Both the position numbers and the translations under genes were made by a program. DNA of 64,000 nucleotides. It comes from Bacteroidales bacterium (GTDB taxonomy: Bacteria; Bacteroidota; Bacteroidia; Bacteroidales; UBA7960). The notes below the pieces were generated by a model. The model was not told the origin of the DNA. It saw only the letters and a list, made by a program, of their open reading frames with translations, and ran no database searches. This document shows positions 8,193-61,694 of the stretch, piece by piece. Location of the stretch: the NCBI GenBank assembly GCA_003567205.1, contig PXAA01000123.1, positions 9,242-73,241 on the forward strand, given 5' to 3'. Each line of letters starts with the position of its first letter. The first letter of the stretch is position 1.

Positions 8193-8225
8193 TCCCAGCG
8201 AGGGTTTATGATTGATAATAATTCG

Positions 8226-8233
8226 TAATTTTG
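8226..8233 (+). promoter_or_regulatory. -7 promoter box TAATTTTG upstream of dcp
   Basis: TAnnTTTG match 47 nt before the ATG. It is followed by a CA-rich leader, ACCCAAACACATAAAAAAAACACACAAACAA. Confidence 0.4.
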
Positions 8234-10406: not shown

Positions 10407-10437
10407 GAAAAACAGAAACAGAAAAACTCCGTAACAG

Positions 10438-10466
10438 AGGGGTCTGGCGCGTAAAGTCAGACCCCT
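10438..10466. terminator. Bidirectional hairpin terminator between convergent dcp and ribE
   Basis: 9-bp stem AGGGGTCTG / CAGACCCCT with an 11-nt loop, followed by TTGTTGTT. Confidence 0.6.
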
Positions 10467-10472
10467 TTGTTG

Positions 10473-11081
10473 TTACTTTTTCGCATTGAAATGCAGCTCC
10501 AGCAACCTTGCAACATATTTCCCGATCACATCAAACTCCAGGTTCACCACCGAGCCTGGTTTGAAATTACGGAAGTTGGTCACCTCGTAAGTATACGGGA
10601 TAATGGCCACCGAGAACATATTGGGCTCTGAGTCAACAACGGTGAGGCTGACGCCGTTCACCGAAATCGAACCCTTTTCAACGGTAATGTTTTTTGGGCC
10701 CGGATCGTATTCGAAAAAAAACTTCCAGCTGCCTTCAAGCTCTTCCACCCTGGTGCAAACGGCTGTCTGGTCTACATGACCCTGGACAATATGCCCGTCG
10801 AGGCGGTCATCGGCGCGCATGCAGCGCTCCAGGTTGACCTCATATCCCACCTCCCATGTGCGCATATTGGTTTTGTCGAGGGTTTCCTGTATAGCCGTTA
10901 GGATGTATTGATTTTTTTCCTTATCGACATGAACCGTGGTCAGGCAGACCCCGTCGTGTGAAACACTCTGATCAATTTTCAATTCTTTGGCAATAGGTGT
11001 TTCAATGGTGAAATGTATATTGCCGCGGTCTTTTTCAATCTTTACAACCTTGCCGGTTGTTTCTACGATTCCGGTAAACAT
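10473..11081 (-). CDS. ribE: Riboflavin synthase alpha subunit
   Basis: Starts MFTGIVETTGKV and shows the duplicated lumazine-binding repeat pattern (SVSHDGVCLTV / SISVNGVSLTV). Confidence 0.9.
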   Translation of the reverse strand: MFTGIVETTGKVVKIEKDRGNIHFTIETPIAKELKIDQSVSHDGVCLTTVHVDKEKNQYILTAIQETLDKTNMRTWEVGYEVNLERCMRADDRLDGHIVQGHVDQTAVCTRVEELEGSWKFFFEYDPGPKNITVEKGSISVNGVSLTVVDSEPNMFSVAIIPYTYEVTNFRNFKPGSVVNLEFDVIGKYVARLLELHFNAKK

Positions 11082-11113
11082 ATTCGCTCGGGTTTTTGTG
11101 TGTCATTGTTGTG

Positions 11114-11121
11114 CAAATGTA
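11114..11121 (-). promoter_or_regulatory. -7 promoter box TACATTTG upstream of ribE
   Basis: TAnnTTTG on the minus strand, 33 nt before the ribE ATG. Confidence 0.4.
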
Positions 11122-11297
11122 CATACATTTCAGGAAACAAATGCAGCGTTAGCAGATGTGTTTATTTTAACACTTTTTATTCTTTTTTTGTGTTATCTTA
11201 TAAAACATATTGCCGACTTTTGAGTTCTATAATTAGACAGTTTGCCCGATACGCATTGAATGAACTTCATGTTGTTGTTTTGGTTAGTTGATTGGTG

Positions 11298-11325
11298 ACC
11301 CCGGAGTTTTAAAGAGCTCCGGGGT
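11298..11325. terminator. Hairpin downstream of the pepP-like gene
   Basis: 9-bp stem ACCCCGGAG / CTCCGGGGT located 20 nt after the stop. The T-run lies on the + strand side only. Confidence 0.45.
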
Positions 11326-11345
11326 TTATTTTTATCCCATGTTTT

Positions 11346-12770
11346 TCACCGCCTCCCGGCCATGATCTGTTCAATGTCTGCTATGGTCTTAGGTATGGGA
11401 CGGCCCAATACGCGATAACCCTCGCCGGTTACCAGCACATCATCTTCAATCCTGACACCGCCGAAATCCAGGTATGATCTTACTTTGGTATAGTCGATAT
11501 ACTCCTTGAATTTTCCCTCTTGTTCCCATTTGTCCACCAAGGCAGGTATAAAATAAATGCCAGGTTCCACCGTAAGCACAAATCCGTTTTGCAGTTTTCG
11601 CCCCAGGCGCAAAAATGCCGTTCCAAAGATACCGGAGCGCTTCACTTCATTATCGTAGCCTACATAATCCTCGCCCAGATCTTCCATATCATGTACATCC
11701 AGACCCATCATATGCCCCAGGCCATGTGGCATAAAAAGGGCATGGGCACCCAGTTCAACGGCTTGTTCCACATCACCCTTCATCAAACCAAGGCTTTTCA
11801 GCCCCCGGGCAATCACCCCGGCAGCAAGCATATGTATGCTTTTAAACGTCTTTCCGGGCCTGATGGAACCAATCGCCTGCAACTGGGCATCCAGCACGAT
11901 CTCATAGATGCTTTTCTGGCGGTCGGTAAACCGGCCGCTTACAGGCATGGTACGTGTATGGTCGGTGGCATAATGCATGGCCGTTTCCGCTCCGCCGTCC
12001 ATCAGAAGCAGCCTCCCTTCTTCCAGTTTGTTGTTGTGTGCATGGTTATGCAGGGTTTCGCCATGAATGGAAAGGATCAGCGGAAATGACAACATGCCGC
12101 CGGCAGAAATGGCAATGCCTTCAATTACACCGGCAATTTCATGTTCATATACCCCGGGGCGGGCCATCTTCATGGCCGTAGTATGCATCAGCCAGGCCAC
12201 TTCCATGGCTTTCTCTATTTCAGCAATCTCCTGTGGTTCTTTCACCGAACGAAGTGCCACGATGGCCCCGATCAATTCCACCGAGGCCATGGATGCCTGT
12301 TCACTGGTGTTGATGCCCAGCAGTTTTTCCAACAATAATTTATTTTCTGCCCGGTATGGCGGCAAAAAATGAACGGGGCGCTTTTCACGAATGGCTTTTT
12401 CGAGTGTATCTGCAAGCTTGTCAAATGCCATGGTTTGATCTACGCCGGCATCTTTTGCCCGTTCGGCCAACGATGCCTGTGGCCCCATCCAGATAATATC
12501 ATCCAGGCTGTAATCATCGCCGAAAATAATATCATTGCCGCTGTCCACATCAATCACCCCAGCCAGGCCCTGCTGGTCCAGGCCAAAAAAGTACAGAAAA
12601 TTGCTGTCCTGCCTGAAGCGATATGTATTGCTGCGATAATTCATGGGAACATCCACATTGCCCAGGATCAGAACAATCCCTTTTTTAATATTTTTCCGCA
12701 AGTGGTCCCTTCTGCTTGTGTAAGTCTTTTTGTCGAACATGATTATTGGGTTTTGACTGTGTTTTTTCAA
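11346..12770 (-). CDS. pepP: Xaa-Pro aminopeptidase (M24B, with AMP_N N-terminal domain)
   Basis: Carries the metal-ligand motifs HGLGHMMGLDVHD, EPGIYF and GVRIEDD. An alternative start is the ATG at 12740 (MFDKKTY). Confidence 0.8.
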   Translation of the reverse strand: MKKHSQNPIIMFDKKTYTSRRDHLRKNIKKGIVLILGNVDVPMNYRSNTYRFRQDSNFLYFFGLDQQGLAGVIDVDSGNDIIFGDDYSLDDIIWMGPQASLAERAKDAGVDQTMAFDKLADTLEKAIREKRPVHFLPPYRAENKLLLEKLLGINTSEQASMASVELIGAIVALRSVKEPQEIAEIEKAMEVAWLMHTTAMKMARPGVYEHEIAGVIEGIAISAGGMLSFPLILSIHGETLHNHAHNNKLEEGRLLLMDGGAETAMHYATDHTRTMPVSGRFTDRQKSIYEIVLDAQLQAIGSIRPGKTFKSIHMLAAGVIARGLKSLGLMKGDVEQAVELGAHALFMPHGLGHMMGLDVHDMEDLGEDYVGYDNEVKRSGIFGTAFLRLGRKLQNGFVLTVEPGIYFIPALVDKWEQEGKFKEYIDYTKVRSYLDFGGVRIEDDVLVTGEGYRVLGRPIPKTIADIEQIMAGRR

Positions 12771-12873
12771 AAATACAACTTTGATACAGACAGCAGAAAG
12801 AAAGACAAACGGTGCGTGTTATTTAAAACCATTTCAAATAGTTGGCCCACTTGGAAAGTATAAACAGAGTTGA

Positions 12874-12881
12874 TATATTTG
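12874..12881 (+). promoter_or_regulatory. -7 promoter box TATATTTG upstream of sdhC
   Basis: TAnnTTTG 55 nt before the ATG. Confidence 0.45.
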
Positions 12882-12935
12882 TTCGCGACCCTTATTTTTA
12901 CTTAAATTTCTTGTCCAAATCATTAAGCCAAGCCC

Positions 12936-13613
12936 ATGAAGAAGCCAATACTCAATCTTTCATCACTCAGCCAAAAGTACATCATGGCCCTTGCGGGGAT
13001 TTTCCTGATGCTTTTTCTGATCTTCCACCTGGCCACCAATCTTTTGATGCTGGCCAGAGACGATGGCGAAGCCTTCAGTGAAGCGGTTAAATTCCTCACC
13101 GAAAACCCGGTCGTCAAAATCATGGAATACTTTCTGTTTGCAGGTTTTTTAATTCACATCATACTGGGTTTATTGCTTAAGCTCCAAAATTACATGGCCC
13201 GCCCGGTGAAATACCATAAATCACTGCAAACCGAAACGTCTACATTCTCCCGTTTTATGTTTCATACGGGCGTTATTATCCTGATTTTTTTGATTATCCA
13301 CCTGATCAATTTCTTCTTCGTAAGACTTGGGTGGGTTCCCATACCCGGCGAAGCAGGAGAAGTTGCCAACAAACATGATTTTTACAGCATGGCCCAAATC
13401 TGGTTCAAGAATCCCTGGTATTCAGCGATTTACCTTGTTTCATTTGTCTTTTTGGGTTTCCACCTGAAGCACGCCTTTCAGTCTGCATTCCAATCACTCG
13501 GGCTGAACCACACCAAGTATACCCCGGTCATAAAGGTGATTGGCACCATATATGCCATAGCCATCAGCGTTGGGTTTGCCATCATCCCGGTGTATTTCTA
13601 CTTTTTTCACTAA
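12936..13613 (+). CDS. sdhC: Succinate dehydrogenase / fumarate reductase cytochrome b subunit (Bacteroidota type)
   Basis: Five-TM protein of 225 aa, placed first in the sdhCAB order typical of Bacteroides. Confidence 0.8.
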   Translation: MKKPILNLSSLSQKYIMALAGIFLMLFLIFHLATNLLMLARDDGEAFSEAVKFLTENPVVKIMEYFLFAGFLIHIILGLLLKLQNYMARPVKYHKSLQTETSTFSRFMFHTGVIILIFLIIHLINFFFVRLGWVPIPGEAGEVANKHDFYSMAQIWFKNPWYSAIYLVSFVFLGFHLKHAFQSAFQSLGLNHTKYTPVIKVIGTIYAIAISVGFAIIPVYFYFFH

Positions 13614-47223: not shown

Positions 47224-47979
47224 ATGAAAAAGAAATACAAATACGGCCTTGTACTCAGTGGCGGGGGCACCCGAGGTTTTGCACACCTGGGGGCGATCAA
47301 GGCTTTGGAAGAAAGCGGGATCAAACCAGACATTATCTCCGGGGTCAGTGCCGGAAGCATTGTCGGGGCCCTCTACGCCGACGGACAGGATGCAGATAAA
47401 GCACTTAAAGCCCTGATCAGCAAAAACCTTCTCGGCTTTTTAGGGCTGATGTTCCCTAAAACAGGGCTGCTAAAAATGACCGGTTTCGAAAGAACACTGA
47501 AAAAAGCCTTGCGGGCCAAACGCTTTGAAGACCTCAGCATCCCGCTGATCATACATGCGGTTAATATCAACAAGGTGGAATACACCCGGTTCGACAAAGG
47601 CGACCTAATACAAGCCATCAAGGCTTCGTCCTCCATACCTATTGTGTTTCCGCCCGTTGAAATTGACGGATGCCTGTATCTGGACGGAGGCCTTGTAAAT
47701 AATTTCCCGGTGGAACCCCTGGTGGATATATGTGACACCATTATTGGCATAAACGTAAATCCCCTTGGAGAAGATTTCAAGATTGGCAATCTGAAAACCA
47801 TCGCCATCCGTTCATTTCACCTTTCGATGCGGAACCACGCCGAAAGCCGAAAAGACAAATGCGACATTTACATTGAACCGGAAGGGTTGGAGTATTTTGG
47901 TATCCTGGACCTTTCAAGCGCCGAAAAAATCTTTGAGTTAGGCTATAAAAAAACACTGGAAGTGCTGAAAAAGAAATAA
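47224..47979 (+). CDS. Patatin-like phospholipase
   Basis: Shows the [11 protein letters not shown] oxyanion motif, the GVSAGS nucleophile and the YLDGG Asp motif. Confidence 0.85.
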
Positions 47980-47983
47980 ATAT

Positions 47984-49462
47984 ATGGCAAAGAAAGCATT
48001 ATACATATACAACTCCCTCACACGCAAACGGGAGGAGTTCTCCCCGCTGAACCACCCATTTGTCGGATTATACGTTTGCGGACCCACCGCTTACGGAGAT
48101 GCCCATCTGGGGCATGCGCGGCCGGCAGTGACTTTTGACCTGGTGTTCCGCTACCTTAAACACCTTGGATACAAAGTACGTTACGTGCGTAATATCACCG
48201 ATGTGGGGCACCTTGAAAGCGATGCCGACCTGGGCGAAGACAAAGTCCTGAAAAAAGCCAGGCTGGAACAACTGGAGCCCATGGAGGTGGTACAATACTA
48301 CTCCGACCGTTATCATGCCGATATGGACAAATTGAATGTGCTGAAACCAAGCATAGAACCCAGGGCTTCGGGACACATTATTGAGCAAATCGGGATGGCC
48401 CAGGCCATATTGGATGCAGGGTTTGCCTATGAGGTAAATGGCTCGGTGTATTTCGACGTGCAAAAATACAACCGGGAACATCATTACGGGAAGCTCAGTG
48501 GCAGGTCGGTCGATGATATGATATCCGGAGGCCGCCAGCTAAACGGGCAAACAGAAAAGCGCTACCCGGCCGATTTTGCTCTCTGGAAAAAAGCAGGCCC
48601 GGGCCACATCATGCGCTGGCCGTCTCCCTGGGGTGAAGGTTTCCCCGGCTGGCACCTGGAATGTTCTGCCATGAGTGCCAAATACCTTGGTGAAGCGTTT
48701 GATATCCACGGAGGGGGCATGGACCTTCTGTTCCCGCACCATGAATGCGAAATCGCCCAGTCCAAAACCGCTTTCGGGAAAGATACCGTTCGCTACTGGA
48801 TGCACAACAATATGGTTACCATCAACGGGCAGAAGATGGGAAAATCGCTGGGCAACTTCATCACTCTCCGCGAATTCTTCGAAGGCAGCCACAAGGCGCT
48901 AAGCAGGGCTTTCGAACCCATGACCATTCGCTTTTTTATTCTTCAGGCACATTACAGGAGTACCCTGGATTTCAGCAATGAAGCATTGGAAGGGGCCGAA
49001 AAAGGCCTGAGAAGGCTGTTGCAGGGCATGGAAACACTAAACAGGCTGGAGGCCTCCGAAATTTCTTCCGTTGACCTGAGTGCCCTGCCGGACAAATGCC
49101 ATGAAGCCATGCTTGATGATTTCAACAGCCCCATGGCCATCGCCCATCTGTTTGACGCGGTAAAAAGTATCAACGCAGTAAAAGAAGGGCAAGCCACATT
49201 AAGCGGATCCGATTTGGAGCTGCTGCGTAAAACCTTCTGTGACTTTGTAGTGGAGATCTTTGGGCTTACACAGCAACAAGCAATGGGCGAAGCACATAAC
49301 AAAGAGATCATTCATGGATTGATGGAGGTCCTGCTGGATTTGCGGCAAAATGCCCGCCGGCAAAAAGACTGGGCCACAGCCGACAAACTACGGGATGCCC
49401 TTCAAAGGCTGCATATCACTGTAAAAGATGGCAAGGACGGGGCAAGCTGGGAAATTGAATAA
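47984..49462 (+). CDS. cysS: Cysteine--tRNA ligase
   Basis: Shows HLGHAR (the HIGH motif), KMGKSLGN (the KMSKS motif) and the WHLEC zinc site. Confidence 0.9.
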
Positions 49463-49479
49463 TTTGTATATTATTAAGC

Positions 49480-49698
49480 ATGAATGCAGCACCTGCCACA
49501 GATAAGCACGAGTTATACCTGAACCATATTCTGAAAGGAAATTGCCGGGACGCGTCGAACCTGGTGAAACAGTGGATCGGCCAACAACTGTCTGTAAGAG
49601 ACCTTTATGAAATGGGTTCTTCGGAAGTCCGGCGTACTTCAATTCCCAAAAAGAGAAATCTACAAGTATTCCAGTATCCTTCCCGAAAGATGCAATAG
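49480..49698 (+). pseudogene. Possible N-terminal fragment of a cobalamin-binding (B12-binding_2 helical bundle) protein
   Basis: ELYLNHILKGNCRDASNLVKQWIGQQLSVRDLYEM fits the B12-binding_2 pattern. The similarity ends around 49612, the ORF then runs into the 3' end of the convergent TolC gene, and no Rossmann DxHxxG part follows. Confidence 0.3.
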
Positions 49699-50979
49699 GG
49701 ATATCTCCGCCAGCTTGGCCTGGTATTGAATGGACACAAGCCTTTCTTCCGCCTCCAGGAGGTTCTTCTGAACTTCCCGCAATTCAATCCCCGACAGATC
49801 ACCCAGGCGATAACGTTCCATGGCAATATCAAGTGTCTCATAGGCCACGCCAAGGTTTTGTGATTCCATCTCTATCAGGCGCAAATTATTCAGGTAAATA
49901 TTGTAGGTGGTGATCAGACTCGACATCAGGCTGTTCTCGGTGTCTTCATAACGCAGGCGGCTGTTCTCGACCGCTATGGTGGCATTGTTTACCCGGCGGC
50001 GCTGGTTAAACCCGTCAAACAGGTTAATCCCAAAGGTAATGCCATAATTCATCCCGTACGTTTGCTGGTCACTGAATGTGCCCGATTGAAAGGTGTTGTG
50101 CGAAAAAGCATAAGCCGAACTCAGGTTCACGTAAGGGTATGCCTGGGAAGAAGCAATCCGCCGGTCATACCCGGAAACCGTTTTGTCATTTTCAGCAAGC
50201 CGCATGGCTGTATTATTCTTTCTTGCAGAAGCTTCAAGGGTCTCAAAAATCAGGATGTCATTCAGGGGAATAATGGTATCTGTGGGTTGCAGGTTGAAAC
50301 GCAGGTTTTCCATGGCCATCAGTTCATTCAGGCGGATACGGGAAGCCCTGACCACTTCTTCCTGCCTGGTCATCCGGGAGCTGTCGGCATTCAAAAAAAC
50401 CTCTGCCTGAAGGAGTTGCAGTTTAGAGCCAGATCCCAGCAAAAAACGCTCCTCATCAATGCGAACCCGTTCCCGCGACAAGTCAACGGCAAACTTCAGG
50501 TTGTTGAGCAGCCGTTGCTGCTGGATCAGGTTAAAGTACTCGGAGGTGAGGCTTGCCACCAGGTGTTCAATGGCCATCCGGGTATTCAACTCCCCCATCT
50601 CTTTCAGTGCCGCCAGTTTGTCGTAGGTGATCTGCACACGGAAACCGTCAAATATGGTCCAGCCAAGGCCTACATTGGCATTGGCCACCGTGTTGTGAAT
50701 GTTCCGCAAAGCGGTTTCGTTGCCGTCAAAATCTGTCCGGCCGGTATTGTTGTATGTTCCGGAATACTGGGTGCGCAAATCAACAGAAGGCAGAAATCCG
50801 GCATTGCCGAGGCTGTAATTGTTGGCAGATATCTGCTGATTATTTCTTGCCATCCGGATGGAATAATTGTTTTCCAGTCCGATGGAAATCACATCCTGCA
50901 GGCTCAACGACTGCTGGGCGTGGAGGCCGGTAGCCACACATAAGATAAACGCATTAAGAATCAACTGCTTGAAATTCAT
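49660..50979 (-). CDS. TolC-family outer membrane efflux protein
   Basis: 439 aa with a signal peptide and a duplicated OEP repeat pattern. It is the last gene of the RND operon. Confidence 0.8.
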   Translation of the reverse strand: MNFKQLILNAFILCVATGLHAQQSLSLQDVISIGLENNYSIRMARNNQQISANNYSLGNAGFLPSVDLRTQYSGTYNNTGRTDFDGNETALRNIHNTVANANVGLGWTIFDGFRVQITYDKLAALKEMGELNTRMAIEHLVASLTSEYFNLIQQQRLLNNLKFAVDLSRERVRIDEERFLLGSGSKLQLLQAEVFLNADSSRMTRQEEVVRASRIRLNELMAMENLRFNLQPTDTIIPLNDILIFETLEASARKNNTAMRLAENDKTVSGYDRRIASSQAYPYVNLSSAYAFSHNTFQSGTFSDQQTYGMNYGITFGINLFDGFNQRRRVNNATIAVENSRLRYEDTENSLMSSLITTYNIYLNNLRLIEMESQNLGVAYETLDIAMERYRLGDLSGIELREVQKNLLEAEERLVSIQYQAKLAEISLLHLSGRILEYL

Positions 50980-53900
50980 CTTTTATATTTTTTGAGTCTG
51001 AAGATATATAAGAATAAACGGCAGGTACCACAAAAAGGGTCAGAAAGGTCGAAAGAATTAATCCGCCAGTTACAGCTATACCCATGGCCATACGGCCCTC
51101 AGCACCATCGCCGAACCCCAATGTCAGCGGCATTACACCCAATATGGTCGACAAACTGGTCATCAGGATTGGCCTGAAACGCGCAGCAGCGGCATATTTG
51201 ATGGCTTCCATTTTCACCATGCCGGCTTGTTTGCGCTGATTGGCAAATTCCACCATCAGGATGCCGTTCTTTGACACCAGCCCGATCAGCATAATGATGC
51301 CGATCTGACTGAATATGTTCATGGTGATGCCGAAATACCACATAAAAACCAGGGCACCGGTCATGGCAAGCGGTACGGTCATCATCACAATAAACGGGTC
51401 TTTAAAACTTTCAAATTGTGCCGACAATACCAAAAAGATGAGGATAATGGCCAGAACAAAGGCAAACACCAGGCTGGAAGAACTTTCCTGGTAGTCCTTA
51501 GAGTCGCCGGCCAGTGCCGTCCTGAAGGTCTCGTCCAGCACTTCATCGGCGATCTTATCCATTTCGGTAATGCCCTCGCTGATGGTTCTGCCGGGGGCCA
51601 GGTTGGCCGAAACCGTCGCCGACACAAAACGGTTGTAACGATAGAGTTGGGGCGGCGCAGTGTGTTCCCGCAAGGTCACCAGGTTGTCTAACTGGATCAT
51701 ATCGCCGCTATTGCTGCGAACATACAGTGATTTTAAATCGAGCGGGGTGTTCCTGTCTTCGCGGCGCAGTTCTCCAAGTACCTGGTATTGCTTACCGTGC
51801 ATAAAGAAATACCCGAAACGTTGACCGCTCAGGGCCAGCTGCAGGGTTTGCCCGATGTTTTGTGTCGAAACGCCCATGGCATTGGCCTTGTCGCGGTCAA
51901 TATGAATCTGCATCTCCGGAAGATTGAAGCGCAGGTTTACATCGGCCATCTGCAAAATGGGATTGTCATTGACTTTTTCCATAAACTCGGGCAGCACATC
52001 CCTCAGCCGGTCAATGCTCTGGGCCTGCAACACATATTGTATCGGCCGGCCCGACCGGCGGCCACCAAAAGTAGATTGCTGGTTCACAAAAGCGATGGCC
52101 CGTGTCTTGTCGCGCAGCACAACGGAAAGCCGGTTGGCGACATCCTGTTGGCTTGCCTCTCTTTGATTGGGCCTTTTGAGCATAACACGCACATTTGACC
52201 AGCCGCCAAATACCATGGAAGTGATAGACTCCCTTTCAGGCACCAGCTCCTCAGCCAAATCGGCAATATCATCAATATAATCGCGCATGAACTCATAGGT
52301 AGTCCCTTCAGGCGCCCGGGCATTGATGGTCAGCATCGACCGGTCTTCCAGTGGTGCCATTTCACCCGGGATATTGCTGTACAGCAACACGACCATCCCG
52401 GCTGCTGCAAACAAAATGACAATAGCCAGCCAGCGACGGGCTAAAAAACGATCCAGGGCATTGGTATACAATTGGTTCAACCTTTTGAAAAATCCTTCTG
52501 TCCGGGTATAAAACCGTCCTTTTTTGGTGCGTTGCTTGAGTATCTTGGTGGAAATCATGGGGGTAAAACTCAGGGCAACAAAGGAAGAGATCAGCACGGC
52601 ACCCGCAATCACAATGCTGAACTCCCTGAACAACCGGCCTGTCATTCCCTCCAGGAAAACGATGGGAAAGAAGACCGCCACCAGGGTGATGGTTGTGGCA
52701 ATAATGGCAAAGAATATTTCTTTGGAACCAGCCAGACCCGCCTCAATGGGGGTCATGCCCTTTTCCACTTTAACGTAAATGTTCTCCATCATTACAATGG
52801 CATCATCCACCACCAGCCCAATGGCCAGTACGATGGCCAGCAGGGTGAGTACATTAACGCTAAATCCGGCCACATACATAATAAAAAATGAACCGATCAG
52901 TGAAACGGGTATGACCAGCACCGGGATGATGGTAGTGCGCCAGTCGCGCAAAAACAAAAAGATAATGATCACCACCAGAATAAAGGCAATAAAAATGGTG
53001 TTGCTTACCTCCCGTATAGATGAACGGATAAAATCCGTATTGTCAAATCCAATATTGATGGCGACATCATCGGGTATATCCCTTTTGATATGTTCCAGGC
53101 GGCGATAAACCTCATCGGCAATATCAATATGGTTGGAGCCTGGCTGCGGAACGATGGCATTGCCCACCAGGGGAACCCCATCGCGACGGACAATTCCACG
53201 CAGATCTTCAGGTCCGAGTTCGGCACGCCCGATGTCCCTGAAGCGGACCACACGGCCGTTATCTTCACTGATAATCATATTGTTGAATTCATCCGGGGTG
53301 GACATCAGCCCAAGGGTCCGTATGGTAAGTTGCACGGTATTTCCTTCAATGCTTCCTGACGGGAACTCTACATTTTCTCTCAACAGGGCATTTCTTACAT
53401 CCAGCGGGGTGAGTCCGTAGCCGGCCATCTTGGCAGGATCGAGCCACAAACGCATGGCATAGCGCTTTTGGCCCCAAATGTGGATTCCGCTGACACCCGG
53501 GATGGTCTGCAATTGTTCACGTAGGGTAAGTTCAGCAATTTCAGACAGTTCCAGCAGGTTCCGGGTTTCGCTCTCCACGGTTACAAACATGATGGGACTG
53601 GCATCGGCATCGGCTTTGGAAACGATGGGCGGATCTACATCCCTGGGCAGCCTGCGCTGCGCCTGGGCTACCTTGTCACGCACGTCATTGGCAGCGGTTT
53701 CCATATCCACGCTTAATTCAAACTCAACAGTGATATTGCTGCTTCCCTGGCGGCTCACACTGGTAATGGTCCGGATCCCGGGCACGGCGTTGATGGCTTG
53801 CTCAAGGGGTTCTGTAATTTGTGTCTCAATTACATCTGAATTGGCCCCGGGATATGATGTGCGAACCGATATAATCGGCGGATCCACGCTGGGAAACTCC

Positions 53901-54004
53901 CGCACGCCGAGATAAGTCATCCCGATAAATCCGAACAACAGGATGACAATGGTAAATACGGAGGCCAATACAGGCCTTTGAATGCTTAATGATGAAAGAC
54001 TCAT
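50954..54004 (-). CDS. RND efflux transporter permease (AcrB/HAE1 type)
   Basis: 1016 aa with a 12-TM architecture and VVDDAIVMMENI in TM4. Confidence 0.9.
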   Translation of the reverse strand: MSLSSLSIQRPVLASVFTIVILLFGFIGMTYLGVREFPSVDPPIISVRTSYPGANSDVIETQITEPLEQAINAVPGIRTITSVSRQGSSNITVEFELSVDMETAANDVRDKVAQAQRRLPRDVDPPIVSKADADASPIMFVTVESETRNLLELSEIAELTLREQLQTIPGVSGIHIWGQKRYAMRLWLDPAKMAGYGLTPLDVRNALLRENVEFPSGSIEGNTVQLTIRTLGLMSTPDEFNNMIISEDNGRVVRFRDIGRAELGPEDLRGIVRRDGVPLVGNAIVPQPGSNHIDIADEVYRRLEHIKRDIPDDVAINIGFDNTDFIRSSIREVSNTIFIAFILVVIIIFLFLRDWRTTIIPVLVIPVSLIGSFFIMYVAGFSVNVLTLLAIVLAIGLVVDDAIVMMENIYVKVEKGMTPIEAGLAGSKEIFFAIIATTITLVAVFFPIVFLEGMTGRLFREFSIVIAGAVLISSFVALSFTPMISTKILKQRTKKGRFYTRTEGFFKRLNQLYTNALDRFLARRWLAIVILFAAAGMVVLLYSNIPGEMAPLEDRSMLTINARAPEGTTYEFMRDYIDDIADLAEELVPERESITSMVFGGWSNVRVMLKRPNQREASQQDVANRLSVVLRDKTRAIAFVNQQSTFGGRRSGRPIQYVLQAQSIDRLRDVLPEFMEKVNDNPILQMADVNLRFNLPEMQIHIDRDKANAMGVSTQNIGQTLQLALSGQRFGYFFMHGKQYQVLGELRREDRNTPLDLKSLYVRSNSGDMIQLDNLVTLREHTAPPQLYRYNRFVSATVSANLAPGRTISEGITEMDKIADEVLDETFRTALAGDSKDYQESSSSLVFAFVLAIILIFLVLSAQFESFKDPFIVMMTVPLAMTGALVFMWYFGITMNIFSQIGIIMLIGLVSKNGILMVEFANQRKQAGMVKMEAIKYAAAARFRPILMTSLSTILGVMPLTLGFGDGAEGRMAMGIAVTGGLILSTFLTLFVVPAVYSYISSDSKNIKDEFQAVDS

Positions 54005-54014
54005 TGTTTGTCGA

Positions 54015-55088
54015 TTATAAATTATCCAAAACTACCGGAAGCCCATGGCGGAGCTGCAAAACACCGGTGGTAAGCAAAGTGTCGCCGAATACCAGCCCGT
54101 CGAGTATCTGAACCCTGTCTTCTGTCCGGATCCCGGTCCTGACATAAACGGCCTGTGCCTGCCCTGACCTGTAAACAAACACCCTGTCGCCCTCCATTTC
54201 CGGGATCAGGGCTTCCGATGGAATAGCAATGGCATCGAGTGTTTCAGAAAGCTGCATGGCGATGGACGCAAAACGGCCGGGTTTCATCTCTTCGTCCACA
54301 TTATCGTATAGTGCACGTACACGGATTGTACGTGTCCTGTCGTCTACCACAGGATTTACTGCATAAACTTCTGCCCGCATTGGCTCCAGAACGCCATCAA
54401 CACGAAAATTAATGGGGAAACCAGGCATAATCTCGCCGGCATAACGCTCGGGCACGGTAAATTCCAGCTTCAGCGGACTGACTTTGATCAGCCGTGCCAG
54501 TTGTGTACTGGGCGAAGCATAGCTGCCTTCACTCAGGTAACGTAACCCGACAATACCATCAAAGGGTGCACGGATTTCTGTTTCAGCAATACGGGCCTCA
54601 AGCAGTTCAATATCTGCATCCAGGGTCTCCAGTTCGGTAACAGCCTGGTCGTAGGCTTCCTGGCTGATGGCATCCCTTTCCAGAAGGCTCCGCTGGCGAA
54701 ATTCCCTTTCAACAAGCAGGCGTCGCTGGGCCTGCAGCTTTTGCAACTGGGCCTGGAGGTGCCTGTCGTTCATTTTGGCAAGCAAATCACCCTCCTGCAC
54801 ATGCGAGCCTTCCTGAAAATAGAGTCCAACCACCTTTCCGCTGGTCTCAAAAGCCAGGTCAACCTCCTCATCCGGGAGCAACGTTCCGGTGCTTCTCACC
54901 TGGTCCCGTATTGGAGTTGGCGACAATATGTAGCCACTAACACTTAAGGGACGACGTTGCTGGGGCTGAAAGGCTGTTTCTTCATCTGTTCCGCCAGGGA
55001 ACAATGGCCTGACCTTCGGATAGGCAATGATCCCGACAAGCAGGGTCAAAATGGCCAGGTTTACAAAAAATCGGATGTTTTTATTCAT
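54015..55088 (-). CDS. RND efflux periplasmic adaptor (membrane fusion protein)
   Basis: Shows an N-terminal anchor, a coiled-coil hairpin (LQAQLQKLQAQRRLL) and barrel domains. Confidence 0.85.
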   Translation of the reverse strand: MNKNIRFFVNLAILTLLVGIIAYPKVRPLFPGGTDEETAFQPQQRRPLSVSGYILSPTPIRDQVRSTGTLLPDEEVDLAFETSGKVVGLYFQEGSHVQEGDLLAKMNDRHLQAQLQKLQAQRRLLVEREFRQRSLLERDAISQEAYDQAVTELETLDADIELLEARIAETEIRAPFDGIVGLRYLSEGSYASPSTQLARLIKVSPLKLEFTVPERYAGEIMPGFPINFRVDGVLEPMRAEVYAVNPVVDDRTRTIRVRALYDNVDEEMKPGRFASIAMQLSETLDAIAIPSEALIPEMEGDRVFVYRSGQAQAVYVRTGIRTEDRVQILDGLVFGDTLLTTGVLQLRHGLPVVLDNL

Positions 55089-55318: not shown

Positions 55319-55894
55319 GTGCAGTTTAGAAAAAGAATTAACATACCTAATTTATTGTCCTTTTACCGGCTACTGTCTTTCCCGGTAATTCTGTTCCTGG
55401 CTTTGGCCGGCTTCCAGCAGGCCTTTGCCGTAATGATCATCATCAACCTGATTACGGATGTGCTGGACGGACTTCTTGCCAGGATGCTGAAGCAACAAAC
55501 CGAATTTGGGGCCCGGATCGATACCATTGCCGATATAGGTACCTATATTCTGGTTTTCCTGGGAATCTGGTTATTTAAAAGAGCGGATTTTGCCCCGCAT
55601 GTAGTGAGCTTCTCTGTTTTTATCGGGTTGCTGGTTGTCGCCCTCGGCCTTTCACTTATTAAGTTTGGCAGGTTTCCCAGCCTTCACCTCTATTCCTGGA
55701 AAATCGGGGGTTACATTCAGGGAACATTCTTTTTTACGCTCTTTGCCTTTGGTTTTATTACCCCGTTTTACTATATCATGGTATACTGGGGGATTTTCGC
55801 TTTTCTGGAACACATCATTATCCAGCTTATTATTCCGGAGATGAGGAGTAATGTGAAGGGACTGTATTGGGTGGCTAGGGGAAGAAGTAGTTAG
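55319..55894 (+). CDS. CDP-alcohol phosphatidyltransferase family protein
   Basis: Carries the full motif D(x)2DG(x)2AR(x)8G(x)3D(x)3D in TDVLDGLLARMLKQQTEFGARIDTIAD. It has about six TM segments and a GTG start. Confidence 0.8.
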   Translation: MQFRKRINIPNLLSFYRLLSFPVILFLALAGFQQAFAVMIIINLITDVLDGLLARMLKQQTEFGARIDTIADIGTYILVFLGIWLFKRADFAPHVVSFSVFIGLLVVALGLSLIKFGRFPSLHLYSWKIGGYIQGTFFFTLFAFGFITPFYYIMVYWGIFAFLEHIIIQLIIPEMRSNVKGLYWVARGRSS

Positions 55895-55939
55895 TAGTTA
55901 GTAATTAGTAATTAGTATTTAGTATTTGGTAATTAGTGG
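55884..55939 (+). repeat. Eight tandem 7-nt units of TTAGTAR type
   Basis: Units are GAAGTAG TTAGTAG TTAGTAA TTAGTAA TTAGTAT TTAGTAT TTGGTAA TTAGTGG. The stop codon of the upstream gene (55892-55894) lies in unit 2. The sense strand of the array contains no C. Confidence 0.85.
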
Positions 55940-55989
55940 GGAGAATTGTGGGTTTAGTATAAAATTTGTTTATAAATGAATTTTTGCTG

Positions 55990-56739
55990 ATGGAGGGGGT
56001 ATTGTATCAGGTCATATTGGGTTATTTCGTTCTGGGGGCGATTGCGTTTGCTTTTATAGGCCGGGGAAAAAGCAGGGAGCAAAAAAAGGAGATCTGGCTG
56101 AAATACGGCACCTATGTGATCATTATCCACGCCCTGTTTGGCAGCATTTATTTCGGGCCACATTATTTCTCTTACCTGGCCTTCCTGTTTGTGGCCGTGG
56201 GTTACACAGAGCTGATAAAAGTATGGTGGGCCGGAAGGGCACATCGCAAGATCAAGGGGTCGCATCCCAAACCGTATTTCTTTTTCCTGTCTGTTGTATG
56301 CTATACCATCCTGGCGCTTCCGTTCCTGTTGTTCAGTTTTTCAGACCGGGGGGCCTTGTATTTTGTTTTTGCTGTGGTAACCGTCTTTGACGCATTCAGT
56401 CAAATAAGCGGCCAGCTGCTGGGCGGAAAAAAACTGATCCCGTCTGTCAGTCCGCGCAAAACAATAGCCGGTTCGGCTGGCGGCGCATTTTTTGCACTGG
56501 TCACAGCGATATTCTTAGTGGGCTTCATTAATACTGGCAGGGGATCTGCCTTGCTTTTTAGCGCAATCATCGTTATCTTTGCATTGTTGGGGGATCTTCT
56601 GGCATCCTATTATAAAAGACAATATGATGTAAAGGATTTCGGCAGCTTGCTGCCCGGGCATGGCGGGTTCCTCGACAGGTTTGACAGTCTGATAGCCGGT
56701 GGTGCCGTCATGTATTTTTTAAACAGCCTGATGTCATGA
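55990..56739 (+). CDS. Phosphatidate cytidylyltransferase (CdsA/CTP_transf_1) family protein
   Basis: Shows the signature SPRKTIAGSAGG ... YYKRQYDVKDFGSLLPGHGGFLDRFDS. I prefer ATG 55990; the ORF track uses TTG 55966. Confidence 0.75.
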   Translation: MEGVLYQVILGYFVLGAIAFAFIGRGKSREQKKEIWLKYGTYVIIIHALFGSIYFGPHYFSYLAFLFVAVGYTELIKVWWAGRAHRKIKGSHPKPYFFFLSVVCYTILALPFLLFSFSDRGALYFVFAVVTVFDAFSQISGQLLGGKKLIPSVSPRKTIAGSAGGAFFALVTAIFLVGFINTGRGSALLFSAIIVIFALLGDLLASYYKRQYDVKDFGSLLPGHGGFLDRFDSLIAGGAVMYFLNSLMS

Positions 56740-57407
56740 GCCAGGAACTCTTCTTTACCATTCTGTATATCATTGCCTTTGTTGCTATACTGGCCACCGG
56801 CGAAATCCTGTATTCCATCCTGAAAGTTAAAACAGAGTATACCAGGAAATTTGCACACGGCACCGCTTCACTGCTCTCGCTTACCTTTCCACTGATCTAT
56901 AATTCCTATGAATACGTCCTGGTAATGGGCATTGTATTCTTCTTCTTGCTGCTTATTGCCAAATGGCGCAATTTGTTACGGTCAATTGACGATGTTTCCA
57001 GAAAAACCTATGGCGGCATATTGCTGCCTGTGGCTATTGCCGGCTCCTTTATTGTGTCCGTATGGCTTGACGACACCAAATTATTCATAATCCCTATCCT
57101 TCTGCTGGGTGTGAGCGATTCTCTGGCAGGGATCACGGGAGTATATTTTGGCGAAAAACTACGCAAGGTCATGATATATAAGCTGCAGCTTAATAAAACC
57201 TACCTGGGCAGTACCGTCTTCTTTTTTACATCACTGGCCATTTCTTTATGTACACTGTATTATTTTATGGGCAATTACAGCACACAGACCATCATGATGG
57301 CCATATCGGTGGCTGCCGGGGCTGCCCTTGTGGAAGTTTTCAGTTCAAAAGGTCTCGATAACTTTACCGTCCCCCTCACTGCCCTGATTATTTTATTGAT
57401 GTTTTAA
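56736..57407 (+). CDS. COG0170-type polyprenol/phytol/dolichol kinase-family membrane protein
   Basis: 223 aa with about seven TM segments. It reads SRKTYGGILLPVAIA and LLGVSDSLAGITGVYFGEK. An ATGA overlap links it to the upstream gene. Confidence 0.55.
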   Translation: MSQELFFTILYIIAFVAILATGEILYSILKVKTEYTRKFAHGTASLLSLTFPLIYNSYEYVLVMGIVFFFLLLIAKWRNLLRSIDDVSRKTYGGILLPVAIAGSFIVSVWLDDTKLFIIPILLLGVSDSLAGITGVYFGEKLRKVMIYKLQLNKTYLGSTVFFFTSLAISLCTLYYFMGNYSTQTIMMAISVAAGAALVEVFSSKGLDNFTVPLTALIILLMF

Positions 57408-57424
57408 CCAAGGATGCGTTAGAT

Positions 57425-60400
57425 ATGCACGTTTACAGTGGTCTTCGCAAAAAGTACCTGCTTCCGGATAACTTGTTCGCACCCGACGGAAAATTGTCAA
57501 TCACCGGTTTTCCCGCCCTGCGCCGTTTGGTTTTTATACTCAACAGCCATAAACAAGACGGTGAACCATTGTATCCCGGCGAACTAAGGGCCTCTTCGTT
57601 GCTCCTGGAAATTTCACAATTCCTGCTTGGCGTCTATGCAAAACAGATTAAAAGAAATGTTTTCTCAGAAGCAAGCGCTAAACTGGAAGAACAAATGGGG
57701 CGCAATGTCCTTTTTTCCCTGGCAGAAGATATTACAAAGCGTTTTCCTCCAGCGGATGTCTTTAATCAAAGCATAACAGCCGCACAATACCTGGCCAAAA
57801 AAACGGGCAACCGGCCGCATCTTCATCAGGCCATCGAAGAAGCCCTGATTTTGCACCTGGCCAACGAAAACCCCGTCAACAATAAACTGAAGATCCTTTT
57901 CGACAAAGCCTATTTGGATAATCCGGAGGATTTTGACGGACTGATTAACAAAATGGAAAGTTTCTTAAAGACAATGCCCCCTTTCGGGCCAGAGCATACA
58001 GACATCTGTTCCTTTTTAAAAACCCCTTTCAGGGTTTCGCCCAACAATATCGATGGCCAGGTGGATTATGTCCTTACGCAATGGAAACATATACTCCCCG
58101 AAGCATTGTTGCTGAAACTTATCCGGAGCAAAGACCTGATGAAGGAGGATTACAATATGACCGGCCATGGGGCCGGAGGGGCCCCGCCAAGCGTGGTTCC
58201 GGGATATGGGAAAAAGGGTCAACCGGGCGAAATGCGCCTCGGTAAATCAGGATTTGACGCTATAAAGGCTGCCGCCGAAGACTACGAAGAAGCCGAAGCC
58301 TTCACCCCCGACACCCATTGGATGCCGCGCGTGGTATTGATTGCCAAAAACACCTATGTATGGCTCGATCAGCTTTCGAAAAAATACCAGCGCGAAATAC
58401 GCAGGCTCGACCAGATTCCGGATGAGGAGCTGGACCGTTTGGCCGGATGGCATTTTAACGGACTCTGGCTTATCGGCATTTGGGAAAGAAGCACTGCCTC
58501 GCGCAAGATCAAACACCTGATGGGCAACCAGGATGCCATATCTTCGGCCTATGCACTCTATGATTATGAGATCGCCAGTGATCTGGGCGGTGAGCAAGCC
58601 TACCACACCCTGAATGAGAGGGCACGCATGCGGGGACTGAGGCTGGCCAGCGATATGGTACCCAACCATACGGGCATTTATTCCAGGTGGGTAATAGAAC
58701 GCCCGGATCATTTCATCCAATCGGGGCATCCACCTTTTCCGGGCTATTCTTTTACAGGTGAAAATCTGTCCGGTCATCCCCATATCGAAATCCGCATCGA
58801 AGACGGGTATTACAATAATACCGACGCCGCCGTGGTCTTTCAGCGTATAGACAGGCAACACGGTGATGTCCGTTACATCTATCACGGGAACGATGGCACC
58901 ATGATGCCATGGAACGATACCGCACAACTCGACATGATCAAGGCGGAAGTGCGTGAAGCAGTGATGCAGAAAATCTTCGATGTGGCACGTAAATTCTCTA
59001 TCATCCGTTTCGATGCCGCCATGACGCTGGCAAAAAAACATTTTTCCAGGTTGTGGTATCCCCGGCCAGGAAGCGGGGGCGATATCCCCTCACGGGCAGA
59101 CCATGCCATGTCAAAAGAAACCTTTGACAGGATGTTCCCGGTGGAGTTCTGGCGCGAAGTCGTCGACCGCATCAATACAGAATTGCCTGACACATTATTG
59201 CTGGCCGAAGCATTCTGGTTCATGGAGGGCTATTTTGTCCGAACGCTTGGCATGCACAGGGTATACAACTCTGCGTTTATGCACATGCTAAAGAATGAAG
59301 AAAATGAAAAATACAGAGATCTGATTACCAACACCCTGGAGTTTGAACCGGAAATCCTGAAGCGCTATGTAAACTTCATGAGTAACCCCGACGAGGAAAC
59401 GGCGATACAGCAATTTGGCACAGGGGACAAATATTTCGGCATTTGCGTGCTGATGAATACCCTGCCCGGGCTTCCCATGTTTGCTCACGGCCAGATCGAA
59501 GGCTTTACGGAAAAGTACGGTATGGAATACCAGCGGGCATATTACCACGAAAAACCCAATCAACACCTGGTGGAAAGGCACGAAAGGGAGATATTCCCCC
59601 TGATGGGGAAACGTTACCTGTTCAACGAAGTAAAGCACTTTAACTTTTATGATTACATCAGCCATGATGGCCGCATTAACGAAAATGTATTTGCCTACAG
59701 CAACCGCCATGACAATGAAAAAGCCCTTATCCTGTTCAACAATAAATATGAGATGGCCAGCGGGCATATCCGTGTGTCAGTCCCCAGGCTGGTAAGTGAA
59801 GGGAGTCAGAAAATAATAAACACTGCCGCATTGGCCGTCGCCCTTGGCATGCAAAATGCCGGCGATGTTTATTATCACGCCCGCGAGCATGTTTCCGGCA
59901 TGGAATATTTGTTCATGGGAGCAGATATCCACCGCGATGGTTTTCACTGGTCTTTACAGGGATTTGAATATCGTGTATTTTTGTCTTTCAGGGAGCTCCG
60001 CGATTCGGACGGAAGCCTGGGGGAACTGCACAGCCGGCTGCAAGGCCGGGGGACGGAGTCGCTGGAAAAAGCACTGGCACTGCAAAAACTGGGGGATGTC
60101 CACGCTGCTTTTGAACATATATTTGAACATGAATCCCTGCACACCTTTATTGAAAACACCATTCGCACCGGCAAACCCGGCACCCATGAAAAAAGCATTG
60201 ATTTGCTATGCAGCAGATTTCAAAGTTTTGCAGGTATTGCCTGCCGTAAACTGAACATCCCCGACAATTCCGCTCAATTAAACAAAGCGTTCCGGCAGCA
60301 CCTGGAAACCATTCCTGAAGGTATGCATTTTCTATCCATTCCTGGTCACTGGACAAAACCCAGGCCGGCCGACAGTACATTTCTTTTACCAGAATACATG

Positions 60401-61054
60401 ATGGTGCTGGCCAGTACCAGTGCGTATTGCGAAAACACCATGCTGCTGCTGGCCTACTATGTATTGAAGACCATGCAGGAAGGTATCAGGGCAAGCGGGC
60501 AGGAACCGGGAAATATCAGCACAAACGGACGGGAATTCGGGCTCATAGGACAGTTGCTATTGGAATGGCCGCTGGAAAACGTATTAAAACACACCGGCCG
60601 GAGTGCCCTGGATATACACAAAGACAAACAACTGGTGGTGATCCTCCTGAGGTTCGGAGACCATGCCTTCTGTTTTCAGGACAAAACAAGCACACGGGGC
60701 AGGCCCGGCAAAAAGACCGGGAAAGACCCGGCCATGGCCAAACAATTTGGAATTGTAATAGAGATGCTTGATGATCCGCTGGTACGCGAATACCTTGGGA
60801 CCAACCAATATGAAGGTACCTGGTACTATAGCAAAGAACAGTTCGGCCAACTGACCCGGTGGCTGTTCTCTACATCCTATCTGTCCTGTTTCAGGCAAAA
60901 GCAAACAGCACGCAGCAAAAACAAGTTGCTGTTGACAATACAACGCATGGCCGGTTTTTTGCAGAAAATTACGGGACTCTCCGACCAGGCTTCCTATCAG
61001 CTTCACATACTATCCGAAAAGCTCCAACACCACAAAAAATCACTTCAACCCTAA
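57425..61054 (+). CDS. Large (1209 aa) alpha-amylase-family (GH13-like) protein with long N- and C-terminal extensions
   Basis: Shows GH13 regions I to IV: ASDMVPNHTG, SIIRFDAAMTL, LLLAEAFWF and NFMSNPDEE (His replaced by Pro). It starts 17 nt after the kinase-like gene. Confidence 0.65.
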   Translation: MHVYSGLRKKYLLPDNLFAPDGKLSITGFPALRRLVFILNSHKQDGEPLYPGELRASSLLLEISQFLLGVYAKQIKRNVFSEASAKLEEQMGRNVLFSLAEDITKRFPPADVFNQSITAAQYLAKKTGNRPHLHQAIEEALILHLANENPVNNKLKILFDKAYLDNPEDFDGLINKMESFLKTMPPFGPEHTDICSFLKTPFRVSPNNIDGQVDYVLTQWKHILPEALLLKLIRSKDLMKEDYNMTGHGAGGAPPSVVPGYGKKGQPGEMRLGKSGFDAIKAAAEDYEEAEAFTPDTHWMPRVVLIAKNTYVWLDQLSKKYQREIRRLDQIPDEELDRLAGWHFNGLWLIGIWERSTASRKIKHLMGNQDAISSAYALYDYEIASDLGGEQAYHTLNERARMRGLRLASDMVPNHTGIYSRWVIERPDHFIQSGHPPFPGYSFTGENLSGHPHIEIRIEDGYYNNTDAAVVFQRIDRQHGDVRYIYHGNDGTMMPWNDTAQLDMIKAEVREAVMQKIFDVARKFSIIRFDAAMTLAKKHFSRLWYPRPGSGGDIPSRADHAMSKETFDRMFPVEFWREVVDRINTELPDTLLLAEAFWFMEGYFVRTLGMHRVYNSAFMHMLKNEENEKYRDLITNTLEFEPEILKRYVNFMSNPDEETAIQQFGTGDKYFGICVLMNTLPGLPMFAHGQIEGFTEKYGMEYQRAYYHEKPNQHLVERHEREIFPLMGKRYLFNEVKHFNFYDYISHDGRINENVFAYSNRHDNEKALILFNNKYEMASGHIRVSVPRLVSEGSQKIINTAALAVALGMQNAGDVYYHAREHVSGMEYLFMGADIHRDGFHWSLQGFEYRVFLSFRELRDSDGSLGELHSRLQGRGTESLEKALALQKLGDVHAAFEHIFEHESLHTFIENTIRTGKPGTHEKSIDLLCSRFQSFAGIACRKLNIPDNSAQLNKAFRQHLETIPEGMHFLSIPGHWTKPRPADSTFLLPEYMMVLASTSAYCENTMLLLAYYVLKTMQEGIRASGQEPGNISTNGREFGLIGQLLLEWPLENVLKHTGRSALDIHKDKQLVVILLRFGDHAFCFQDKTSTRGRPGKKTGKDPAMAKQFGIVIEMLDDPLVREYLGTNQYEGTWYYSKEQFGQLTRWLFSTSYLSCFRQKQTARSKNKLLLTIQRMAGFLQKITGLSDQASYQLHILSEKLQHHKKSLQP

Positions 61055-61124: not shown

Positions 61125-61694
61125 TCAAATCGGTTCTGTAAGATCAAAATCTGCCTGAAACACAATGTCGCCATCGTAGAGCAGGCGGTAAGAAAAAGTG
61201 GTCATCTCTTCGTCCATCACTACATGCCATTCCCGGCCAAAGTTCCCATCGAGCAATTCCCTGGAATATTCATCCTTGGGAAAATATTGCGCATAAGCCG
61301 TTCCCTTTCCGTCTGAATAACCTCCATAAAGGGTATTGGCTTCAGGGGTTCCATCAGGGTACCTGTGGTCGTGGCGAAAACGCAGACGGCCATCCTCTAC
61401 AAGAAACATCCAGGTGCGTGAAGTATCGTCCGACAGATGAAAAGGAATCAGCACGCGGTCTTCTTCACAAAGGGTCACATGCATTATAAAATCAAGATGT
61501 GCCCAGCTATCGCGTCCATCCGCCATAAATGTTTCCTCCCCACGGAATGATTGTCCGCATAAGCTGGCCAGATTATCCAGAAAAGCCCGCTCTTCGGCTG
61601 ATAACTGAACCTCTTCGGCAGTTTCGCGAGGTGTCTGCCCGCAGGCAGAAAACAAAACGATGGCTGTCAACGCCACAAAAAATAGTCTGTACAT
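61125..61694 (-). CDS. Hypothetical lipoprotein
   Basis: Shows the lipobox VLFSACGQ. I recognise no family. Confidence 0.5.
   Translation of the reverse strand: MYRLFFVALTAIVLFSACGQTPRETAEEVQLSAEERAFLDNLASLCGQSFRGEETFMADGRDSWAHLDFIMHVTLCEEDRVLIPFHLSDDTSRTWMFLVEDGRLRFRHDHRYPDGTPEANTLYGGYSDGKGTAYAQYFPKDEYSRELLDGNFGREWHVVMDEEMTTFSYRLLYDGDIVFQADFDLTEPI

Follow-up and report, generated by a model that had tools for sequence, protein, structure and literature searches.

Do neighbouring genes at one locus work together?

Four neighbouring genes that run in the same direction may belong to one pathway, or they may simply stand next to each other. This question is raised by positions 55,319 to 61,054 of a 64,000-nt stretch of Bacteroidales DNA (GenBank assembly GCA_003567205.1, contig PXAA01000123.1), here called the window. 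The initial annotation had read these genes, P1 to P4, as a coupled route in which a lipid alcohol is activated as a cytidine diphosphate (CDP) lipid and finally gives a glucosylated or maltooligosyl lipid, or a lipid-primed glucan. Our analysis indicated that the locus probably holds two independent things: a lipid-head-group operon made of P1, P2 and P3 (the trio), and an unrelated gene, P4, which was placed alongside it by an insertion or deletion (indel). The four genes are as follows.

55319..55894, + strand: P1, CDP-alcohol phosphotransferase of a distinct subfamily, 191 amino acids (aa); PF01066, invariant catalytic motif
55966..56739, + strand: P2, CdsA-type CTP:lipid-phosphate cytidylyltransferase paralogue (CTP, cytidine triphosphate), 257 aa; PF01148, CdsA signature
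56736..57407, + strand: P3, COG0170-type (SEC59/DGK1/VTE5-like) membrane protein, putative CTP-dependent lipid-alcohol kinase, 223 aa
57425..61054, + strand: P4, GH13-like protein, predicted soluble, 1209 aa; PF00128

The four co-directional open reading frames of the initial annotation were all recovered, and the ATGA overlap of P2 and P3 (56736-56739) and the 17-nt gap between P3 and P4 (57408-57424) read exactly as it had described them. P1, P2 and P3 are polytopic membrane proteins. The 257 aa of P2 are counted from a TTG at 55966, and an internal ATG at 55990, which gives 249 aa, is the likelier start.

P1, P2 and P3 recur as an operon in Bacteroidota

A metagenome scan with the P1 alignment yielded 80 loci (these and other loci are cited by L numbers), and the counts given here are from informative loci. 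Where P1 was at least 70% identical, P2 was found in 19/19 loci, P3 in 18/18 and P4 in 15/16. With P1 below 70% identity, 32 of 45 loci had P2, at least 19 of 35 had P3 and none of 23 had P4. The trio was also seen without P4, in unrelated neighbourhoods, in L088, L093, L108 and about 20 metagenome loci. In 35 of 41 loci, distant ones included, P2 and P3 overlapped by 4 nt or 1 nt, and the catalytic motifs of all three proteins were retained across loci. Gene order, the conserved 4-nt overlap with the translational coupling of P2 and P3, the existence of CdsA-P3 fusion proteins and the recurrence of the genes in unrelated, independent contexts thus mark the trio as a coherent unit, and on this point the grouping proposed by the initial annotation was borne out. 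These results indicated that P1-P2-P3 is a genuine, widely conserved operon of Bacteroidota, predicted to serve lipid head-group synthesis.

Some loci depart from the usual order. In L134 (5505-7573) and L137 (1-1674) it is P2-P3-P1, so that the P2-P3 pair stays joined while P1 moves. A gene for a TauE/SafE-family (PF01925) transporter accompanies the trio in L174 (7594-8397) and in 15 other loci (L129, L134, L140-L142, L144, L148, L154, L155, L158, L161, L167, L169, L171 and L172), mostly between P1 and P2. This association hints at an anionic, possibly sulfonated, solute tied to the pathway.

P4 adjoins the trio in a single lineage

The neighbourhood of P4 was examined in 80 genome loci, kept out of at least 588, with P4 41-57% identical, by tblastn within 10 kb. 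No homologue of P1, P2 or P3 was found near P4 in any of the 80, either at E<=1e-5 or at E<0.1. Nor did these loci hold a recurrent carbohydrate or lipid partner of P4, and clustering of the neighbours gave lineage-specific synteny blocks only. The four-gene arrangement was confined to close relatives (P4 48-98% identical) within one soda-lake Bacteroidales lineage. These loci share the whole surrounding block, including the RND pump, a 189-aa protein, DUF2807 genes, YebC and an ABC-F protein, and because the block is conserved as a whole they represent one lineage and not independent observations. Conserved co-localisation of the four genes across independent lineages was not found.

The history of the adjacency can be read from the genes upstream of the trio, which are given below.

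47224..49462, + strand: patatin-like gene and cysS, the synteny anchors shared with L010 (61% and 70% identity)
49660..55088, - strand: RND efflux operon (outer membrane protein, pump, membrane fusion protein), from open reading frames, with Pfam labels taken from the near-identical contig L001

In L010, a 388-kb contig of an uncultured Bacteroidales bacterium, the patatin-like gene (61%), cysS (70%) and P4 (48%) are contiguous, whereas the order in the window is patatin-like gene, cysS, divergent RND operon, trio and then P4. The interval between cysS and P4 in L010 is empty, with neither the RND operon nor the trio. There, cysS overlaps the P4 homologue by 4 nt (8331-13525), and the latter is apparently translationally coupled to the cysteinyl-tRNA synthetase gene. 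Since cysS and P4 are directly joined in L010, the trio-P4 adjacency would be a by-product of an indel of about 8 kb, and the ancestral position of P4 in the order Bacteroidales is predicted to be directly after cysS. Parsimony favours an insertion in the soda-lake lineage, since P4 stands without the trio everywhere else. Another locus, L002, has an RND operon upstream of P4 and no trio, and was considered as a syntenic empty site; it was withdrawn because its pump is only 26% identical to that of the window, and L010 was taken as the valid comparison.

The initial annotation had proposed to check the neighbourhood of the GH13-like gene in related genomes, and there this gene usually lies elsewhere. 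With the trio in 0/80 P4 genome loci, P4 in 0/23 divergent trio loci, and cysS joined to P4 in L010, the claimed coupling of P4 to the trio was not supported. The glucosylated or maltooligosyl lipid and the lipid-primed glucan are likewise left without comparative support, because the association is absent outside one lineage. As judged from its genomic contexts, P4 is an unrelated neighbour of the trio, and no glycolipid pathway is indicated.

P1 is a separate CDP-alcohol phosphotransferase subfamily and P2 is a CdsA-type enzyme

P1 matched PF01066 with 65.4 bits, against a cut-off of 22. The complete motif D-x2-DG-x2-AR-x8-G-x3-D-x3-D reported by the initial annotation is present, and D47, D50, G51, A54, R55, G64, D68 and D72 are invariant in the family alignment. 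The block FGRFPSLHLYSWKIGGYIQG is also invariant, and it is family-specific. None of the NCBIfam cut-offs for characterised types was reached by P1: it scored 48.9 bits with ClsA (cut-off 240), 40.7 with PgsA (109), 29.6 with phosphatidylinositol phosphate (PIP) synthase (170) and 27.7 with PssA (107). With the solved PssA and PIP synthase structures, the profile match was limited to the common N-terminal motif. We collected 1238 relatives, many of them 60-70% identical and from metagenome-assembled genomes of Bacteroidales, Saprospiraceae and Lewinellaceae, and P1 is the most conserved member of the trio. Relatives are labelled 'cardiolipin synthase (CMP-forming)' or PgsA by the Joint Genome Institute (JGI), and 'family protein' only by NCBI (CMP, cytidine monophosphate). 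On its sequence, P1 is predicted to represent a separate CDP-alcohol phosphotransferase subfamily, one with thousands of members to which no head group has been assigned. In L140 (7001-11275), three P1 paralogues (7001-7567, 7663-8232 and 10721-11275) surround a single P2-P3 pair, which suggests that several head groups or acceptors are fed by one CDP-lipid supply.

P2 matched PF01148 with 133.6 bits (cut-off 24). Its CdsA signature, KR-x4-KD-x5-PGHGG-x-LDRFD, is present as had been noted before, and it is kept in nearly all trio loci. The Escherichia coli-type equivalog NF008635 was not reached (76 against a cut-off of 385), as expected for a distant phylum or a paralogue. P2 is equidistant from E. 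coli CdsA (75.9 bits) and its paralogue YnbB (73.9 bits), and it appears to be a CdsA paralogue dedicated to the trio route. In the K-[ST]-x-E-G motif, the trio clade has Leu or Ile in place of Glu. Loss of the Glu was considered as a mark of an inactive P2 or P3, and this idea was dropped: the corresponding residue of E. coli CdsA is a Gln, which makes the substitution uninformative.

P3 is a putative CTP-dependent lipid kinase

PF01148 unites cytidylyltransferases such as CdsA and CarS with the CTP-dependent lipid kinases Dgk1, Sec59 and VTE5. P3 scored 23.6 bits with this family, and it gave no match at E<=0.01 with PF01940 (the DUF92/VTE6 type). The putative COG0170-type assignment of the initial annotation relies on the near-threshold PF01148 score and the JGI labels of P3 relatives ('dolichol kinase' and 'phosphatidate cytidylyltransferase/phytol kinase'), while the expected PF01940 match was not obtained. 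P3 is without the CdsA signature loop. Its invariant residues are TRKxxH near the N-terminus, D128-x6-G135, K154 and E200..G206-x-D208-N209..P213, and E200...D208-N209 stands where P2 has GD...LDRFD. Particular to this clade are the motif variants KTx[LI]G[ST]. An AlphaFold2 (AF2) model had a predicted local distance difference test (pLDDT) score of 87 and was all-helical and polytopic.

In yeast Dgk1, mutation of R76/K77 or D177 abolishes CTP-dependent kinase activity, and D177 is the Asp common to all cytidylyltransferases (PMC2459266, PMC3486869). Where counterparts of R76/K77 and D177 would be expected, P3 has an Arg-Lys pair and an Asp, as mapped by motif and not by alignment. The name 'kinase' rests on family labels and motifs, since P3 has no NCBIfam match and its model has no significant neighbour in the PDB, and the kinase activity of P3 is thus described here as putative.

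A word search returned 44 P3 relatives, and an exhaustive profile search returned 5920 cluster representatives at E<=1e-3, 527 of them at E<=1e-30. Four proteins among the top P3 matches (P0341, P0343, P0347 and P0374) are Rosetta-stone fusions in which a P3 domain comes after a complete CdsA domain. In a second class of fusions (P0325, P0326, P0335, P0372 and P0426), P3 is followed by a polytopic domain of about 230 aa without a Pfam or NCBIfam match.

A proposed three-step route and a second genomic context

In the route that we infer from the family assignments, conserved motifs, co-occurrence, fusions and synteny observed above, P3 would phosphorylate a membrane lipid alcohol with CTP, in the manner of yeast Dgk1, dolichol kinase and phytol kinase. 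P2 would then turn the lipid phosphate into a CDP-lipid, and P1 would move the lipid-phosphoryl group onto a polar alcohol with release of CMP. The activity of P3, the order of the reactions and the substrate are predictions. The most conservative choice of lipid would be diacylglycerol, and a prenol or some other lipid alcohol may serve instead. As to the locus itself, it is in one soda-lake Bacteroidales lineage that the RND operon and the trio would have come to separate cysS from P4, and the resulting adjacency of trio and P4 probably entails read-through transcription without functional coupling.

A different setting of P1, context B, was found in eleven loci without P2 or P3: L092 (489-8561), L114-L116, L130, L136, L145, L146, L159, L168 and L170. 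P1 is about 65% identical there, the hosts are Lewinellaceae/Saprospiraceae-type bacteria, and the gene lies in an isoprenoid-flavoured lipid cluster. Its partners are one or two CarS-like (PF01864) proteins, a phosphoenolpyruvate-synthase/Rph-like phosphotransferase and a UbiA prenyltransferase, together with an HMG-CoA-reductase+APH fusion and a divergent ICMT/PEMT-like methyltransferase. Context B supports the three-step logic because it presents the same sequence of kinase, cytidylyltransferase and transferase built from different parts.

We tentatively consider a further possibility, in which the lipid is drawn from outside the usual phosphatidate pool: P3 acts on a lipid alcohol other than diacylglycerol (a prenol, a phytol-like alcohol or a further type), P2 makes a CDP-lipid without precedent in bacteria and P1, whose invariant acceptor-side motif is unique, adds an unusual head group, so that the product would be a new class of Bacteroidota membrane lipid. 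This would fit the clustering of 65%-identical P1 relatives with CarS-like, UbiA, HMG-CoA reductase and phosphotransferase genes, and also the TauE/SafE-type anion-transporter genes inserted in the operon in 16 loci.

Weighing of the alternatives

That all four genes serve one pathway, with the CDP-lipid route and the GH13-like enzyme making a glucosylated or maltooligosyl lipid or a lipid-primed glucan, is very improbable. Such a pathway would agree with the co-directional genes, the short P3-P4 gap and the adjacency in 15/16 informative soda-lake loci, and the E. coli CdsA paralogue YnbB does make CDP-diacylglycerol and the first intermediate of the glycolipid MPIase (PMC6362211). However, the association is missing from 80/80 P4 genome loci and 23/23 divergent trio loci, and the soda-lake loci are not independent, being syntenic over the whole neighbourhood. 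L010 couples P4 to cysS instead, P4 is predicted to be soluble with no membrane segment, and the length of the P3-P4 gap differs between loci (16 to 193 nt) whereas the P2-P3 spacing does not vary in this way. The separation of P4 from an operon of P1, P2 and P3 is accordingly the reading that we prefer, and several points weigh against it. P4 does follow the trio in nearly all soda-lake loci, and the window has a gap of 17 nt with no terminator-like site in it; co-transcription and some lineage-specific functional use of P4 are therefore possible. Only parsimony speaks for an insertion here and against a deletion in L010. P3 falls 0.4 bits under the PF01148 cut-off of 24, matches no NCBIfam model and gave no significant PDB neighbour in a fold search with its AF2 model.

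Two other explanations concern the trio itself. It is unlikely that P1-P2-P3 is the ordinary machinery of phospholipid synthesis, with P2 as the only CdsA, P1 as a PgsA-like or cardiolipin-synthase-like enzyme and P3 as an accessory protein. The complete CdsA signature of P2 and the JGI labels of P1 relatives would agree with such a role, as would L093, in which the trio lies near rsfS-ftsH, presumably the neighbourhood where Bacteroidales keep cdsA. Neither the window nor the 2.2 Mb of loci searched yielded a second CdsA, PgsA or YnbA-like gene, which is uninformative on this question because only 64 kb of the genome is visible. P1, however, is far under the cut-offs for PgsA (41 vs 109) and ClsA (49 vs 240), and NCBI names its relatives 'family protein' only. 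The distribution is patchy, the trio lying in the segment that is missing between cysS and P4 in L010; L140 has three P1 paralogues; P1 is also paired with CarS-like partners in place of P2; and the E. coli operon of a CDP-alcohol transferase and a CdsA paralogue is non-essential (PMC6362211). The patchy distribution, the indel, the paralogues in L140, the CarS partners and the ynbAB precedent make an accessory role of the trio considerably more probable than a housekeeping one. We give an equally low probability to the idea that P3 is not a kinase and is instead a partner of P2 with another catalytic function or with none (a second substrate-binding subunit, or a phosphatase-like or lipid-flipping protein), P2 and P1 then drawing on the phosphatidate pool for a specialised phospholipid. 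The weak family and structure matches of P3 speak for this, and so do P1-P2 pairs without a detectable P3 (L094, L129, L141, L148 and others) and the Leu or Ile of the trio clade in K-[ST]-x-E-G. The last point loses its force with the Gln of E. coli CdsA; the acidic and basic residues expected of a CTP-dependent kinase are invariant in P3, independent JGI labels name dolichol or phytol kinase, and the CdsA fusions and the translational coupling speak for successive or shared catalysis by P2 and P3.

P4 is a divergent GH13-like protein

P4 matched PF00128 with 29.2 bits (cut-off 22) and was far under all NCBIfam equivalog cut-offs. The three catalytic carboxylates pointed out by the initial annotation, D530, E595 and D656, were indeed kept in all members of an 18-sequence family alignment, in which D410, N414 and H415 of the DMVPNH block were also invariant. 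P4 thus resembles GH13 enzymes in its candidate nucleophile Asp and its region IV Asp. Only regions I (DMVPNH) and III (the Glu) aligned to solved structures with HMMER (3dhu and 5zcr), and regions II and IV were assigned by inspection. P4 differs from GH13 in a region IV that reads NPDE where GH13 has NHD (His to Pro), and in N-terminal and C-terminal regions of about 290 aa and 450 aa without a family assignment. The AF2 model of the catalytic core had a pLDDT of 46. P4 has neither a hydrophobic segment nor a signal peptide, and it is therefore predicted to be soluble and cytoplasmic.

More than 8000 relatives were scored, most of them unnamed or called 'alpha-amylase family' only, and no characterised member of the family was found. 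Counting one genome per species, the gene occurs at 588 or more loci in Bacteroidota, Ignavibacteria, Chloroflexota, KSB1, Spirochaetes and others. All these results showed that P4 is a very divergent GH13-like enzyme of a large multi-phylum family, which normally stands alone. The P4 family is a separate puzzle, and its gene should not be annotated in a glycolipid pathway.

Other features of the region

Two further features lie within or next to the four genes.

55886..55937, no strand: array of the heptamer AGTAATT, 7.4 copies (Tandem Repeats Finder)
61125-61694, - strand: 189-aa protein without any Pfam match, directly downstream of P4

The heptamer array covers the P1 stop codon and the P1-P2 spacer. 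Its copy number varies in the close relatives L001, L082 and L083, and the more distant L084, L086 and L089 have no such array. The 189-aa protein adjoins P4 in every member of the soda-lake lineage, and a paralogue about 50% identical to it lies about 5 kb further on in L001, L082, L086, L089, L090 and L091. A scan for sigma-70 promoters, a type that leaves Bacteroidota promoters outside its scope, gave 10 sites against 10.8 expected in shuffled sequence. Terminator-like sites numbered 14, about twice the shuffle mean of 7.5 (standard deviation 2.9), and none of them was between P3 and P4.

Significance of the trio

If the proposed reactions are correct, the trio would add to bacterial lipid biochemistry a compact, self-contained route from a lipid alcohol to a finished phospholipid, and it would draw in a CTP-dependent kinase family that has hardly been studied in bacteria. 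The product is directly testable because the operon is small enough for expression in E. coli. The trio also bears on the 'archaeal-type' lipid pathway of the FCB (Fibrobacteres-Chlorobi-Bacteroidetes) group, in which the CarS step was reported as undetected (PMC7852524), because P1 relatives sit beside CarS-like genes.

Comparison with known systems

Literature searches turned up no described operon of COG0170, CdsA and PF01066 members, which agrees with the statement of the initial annotation that no pathway of this composition was known. Dedicated CDP-lipid head-group operons as such are already known; the three-gene module is real and undescribed. The closest described arrangement is ynbA-ynbB of the E. 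coli ynbABCD operon, which is non-essential and accessory. There, as with P1 and P2, a gene of the CDP-alcohol phosphatidyltransferase family precedes one for a CdsA paralogue, and the stop of ynbA and the start of ynbB overlap by 4 nt. The likeness is architectural only. P1 scored 48.5 bits with PgsA against 34.7 with YnbA, and P2 is no closer to YnbB than to CdsA, so that orthology with ynbAB was not found. Further, ynbABCD is without a COG0170 member, and the trio is without a YnbD-type phosphatase. In L094 (6924-10872), P1 and P2 are followed by a 799-aa chlorophyllase-like alpha/beta hydrolase instead of P3, which resembles ynbC after ynbAB.

The yeast series Dgk1, Cds1 and CDP-alcohol transferases shares with the trio the fold superfamily PF01148 and the proposed order of reactions. 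The conserved Asp and the Arg-Lys pair that Dgk1 needs have counterparts in P3 at the level of motifs, not by direct alignment, and the P3 clade differs from Dgk1, SEC59 and VTE5 (COG0170) in its motif variants and in its score under the Pfam cut-off. The eukaryotic Dgk1/Cds1-type enzymes are neither clustered nor fused, unlike those of the trio, and in archaea COG0170 domains are fused to other members of the same superfamily (PMC5898192). In bacterial CdsA/PgsA and archaeal CarS/archaetidyl-transferase systems, a CDP-lipid is made and then used by a PF01066 enzyme, as is proposed for P2 and P1; the operon of the trio differs from both in having a kinase-like third gene as an integral member.

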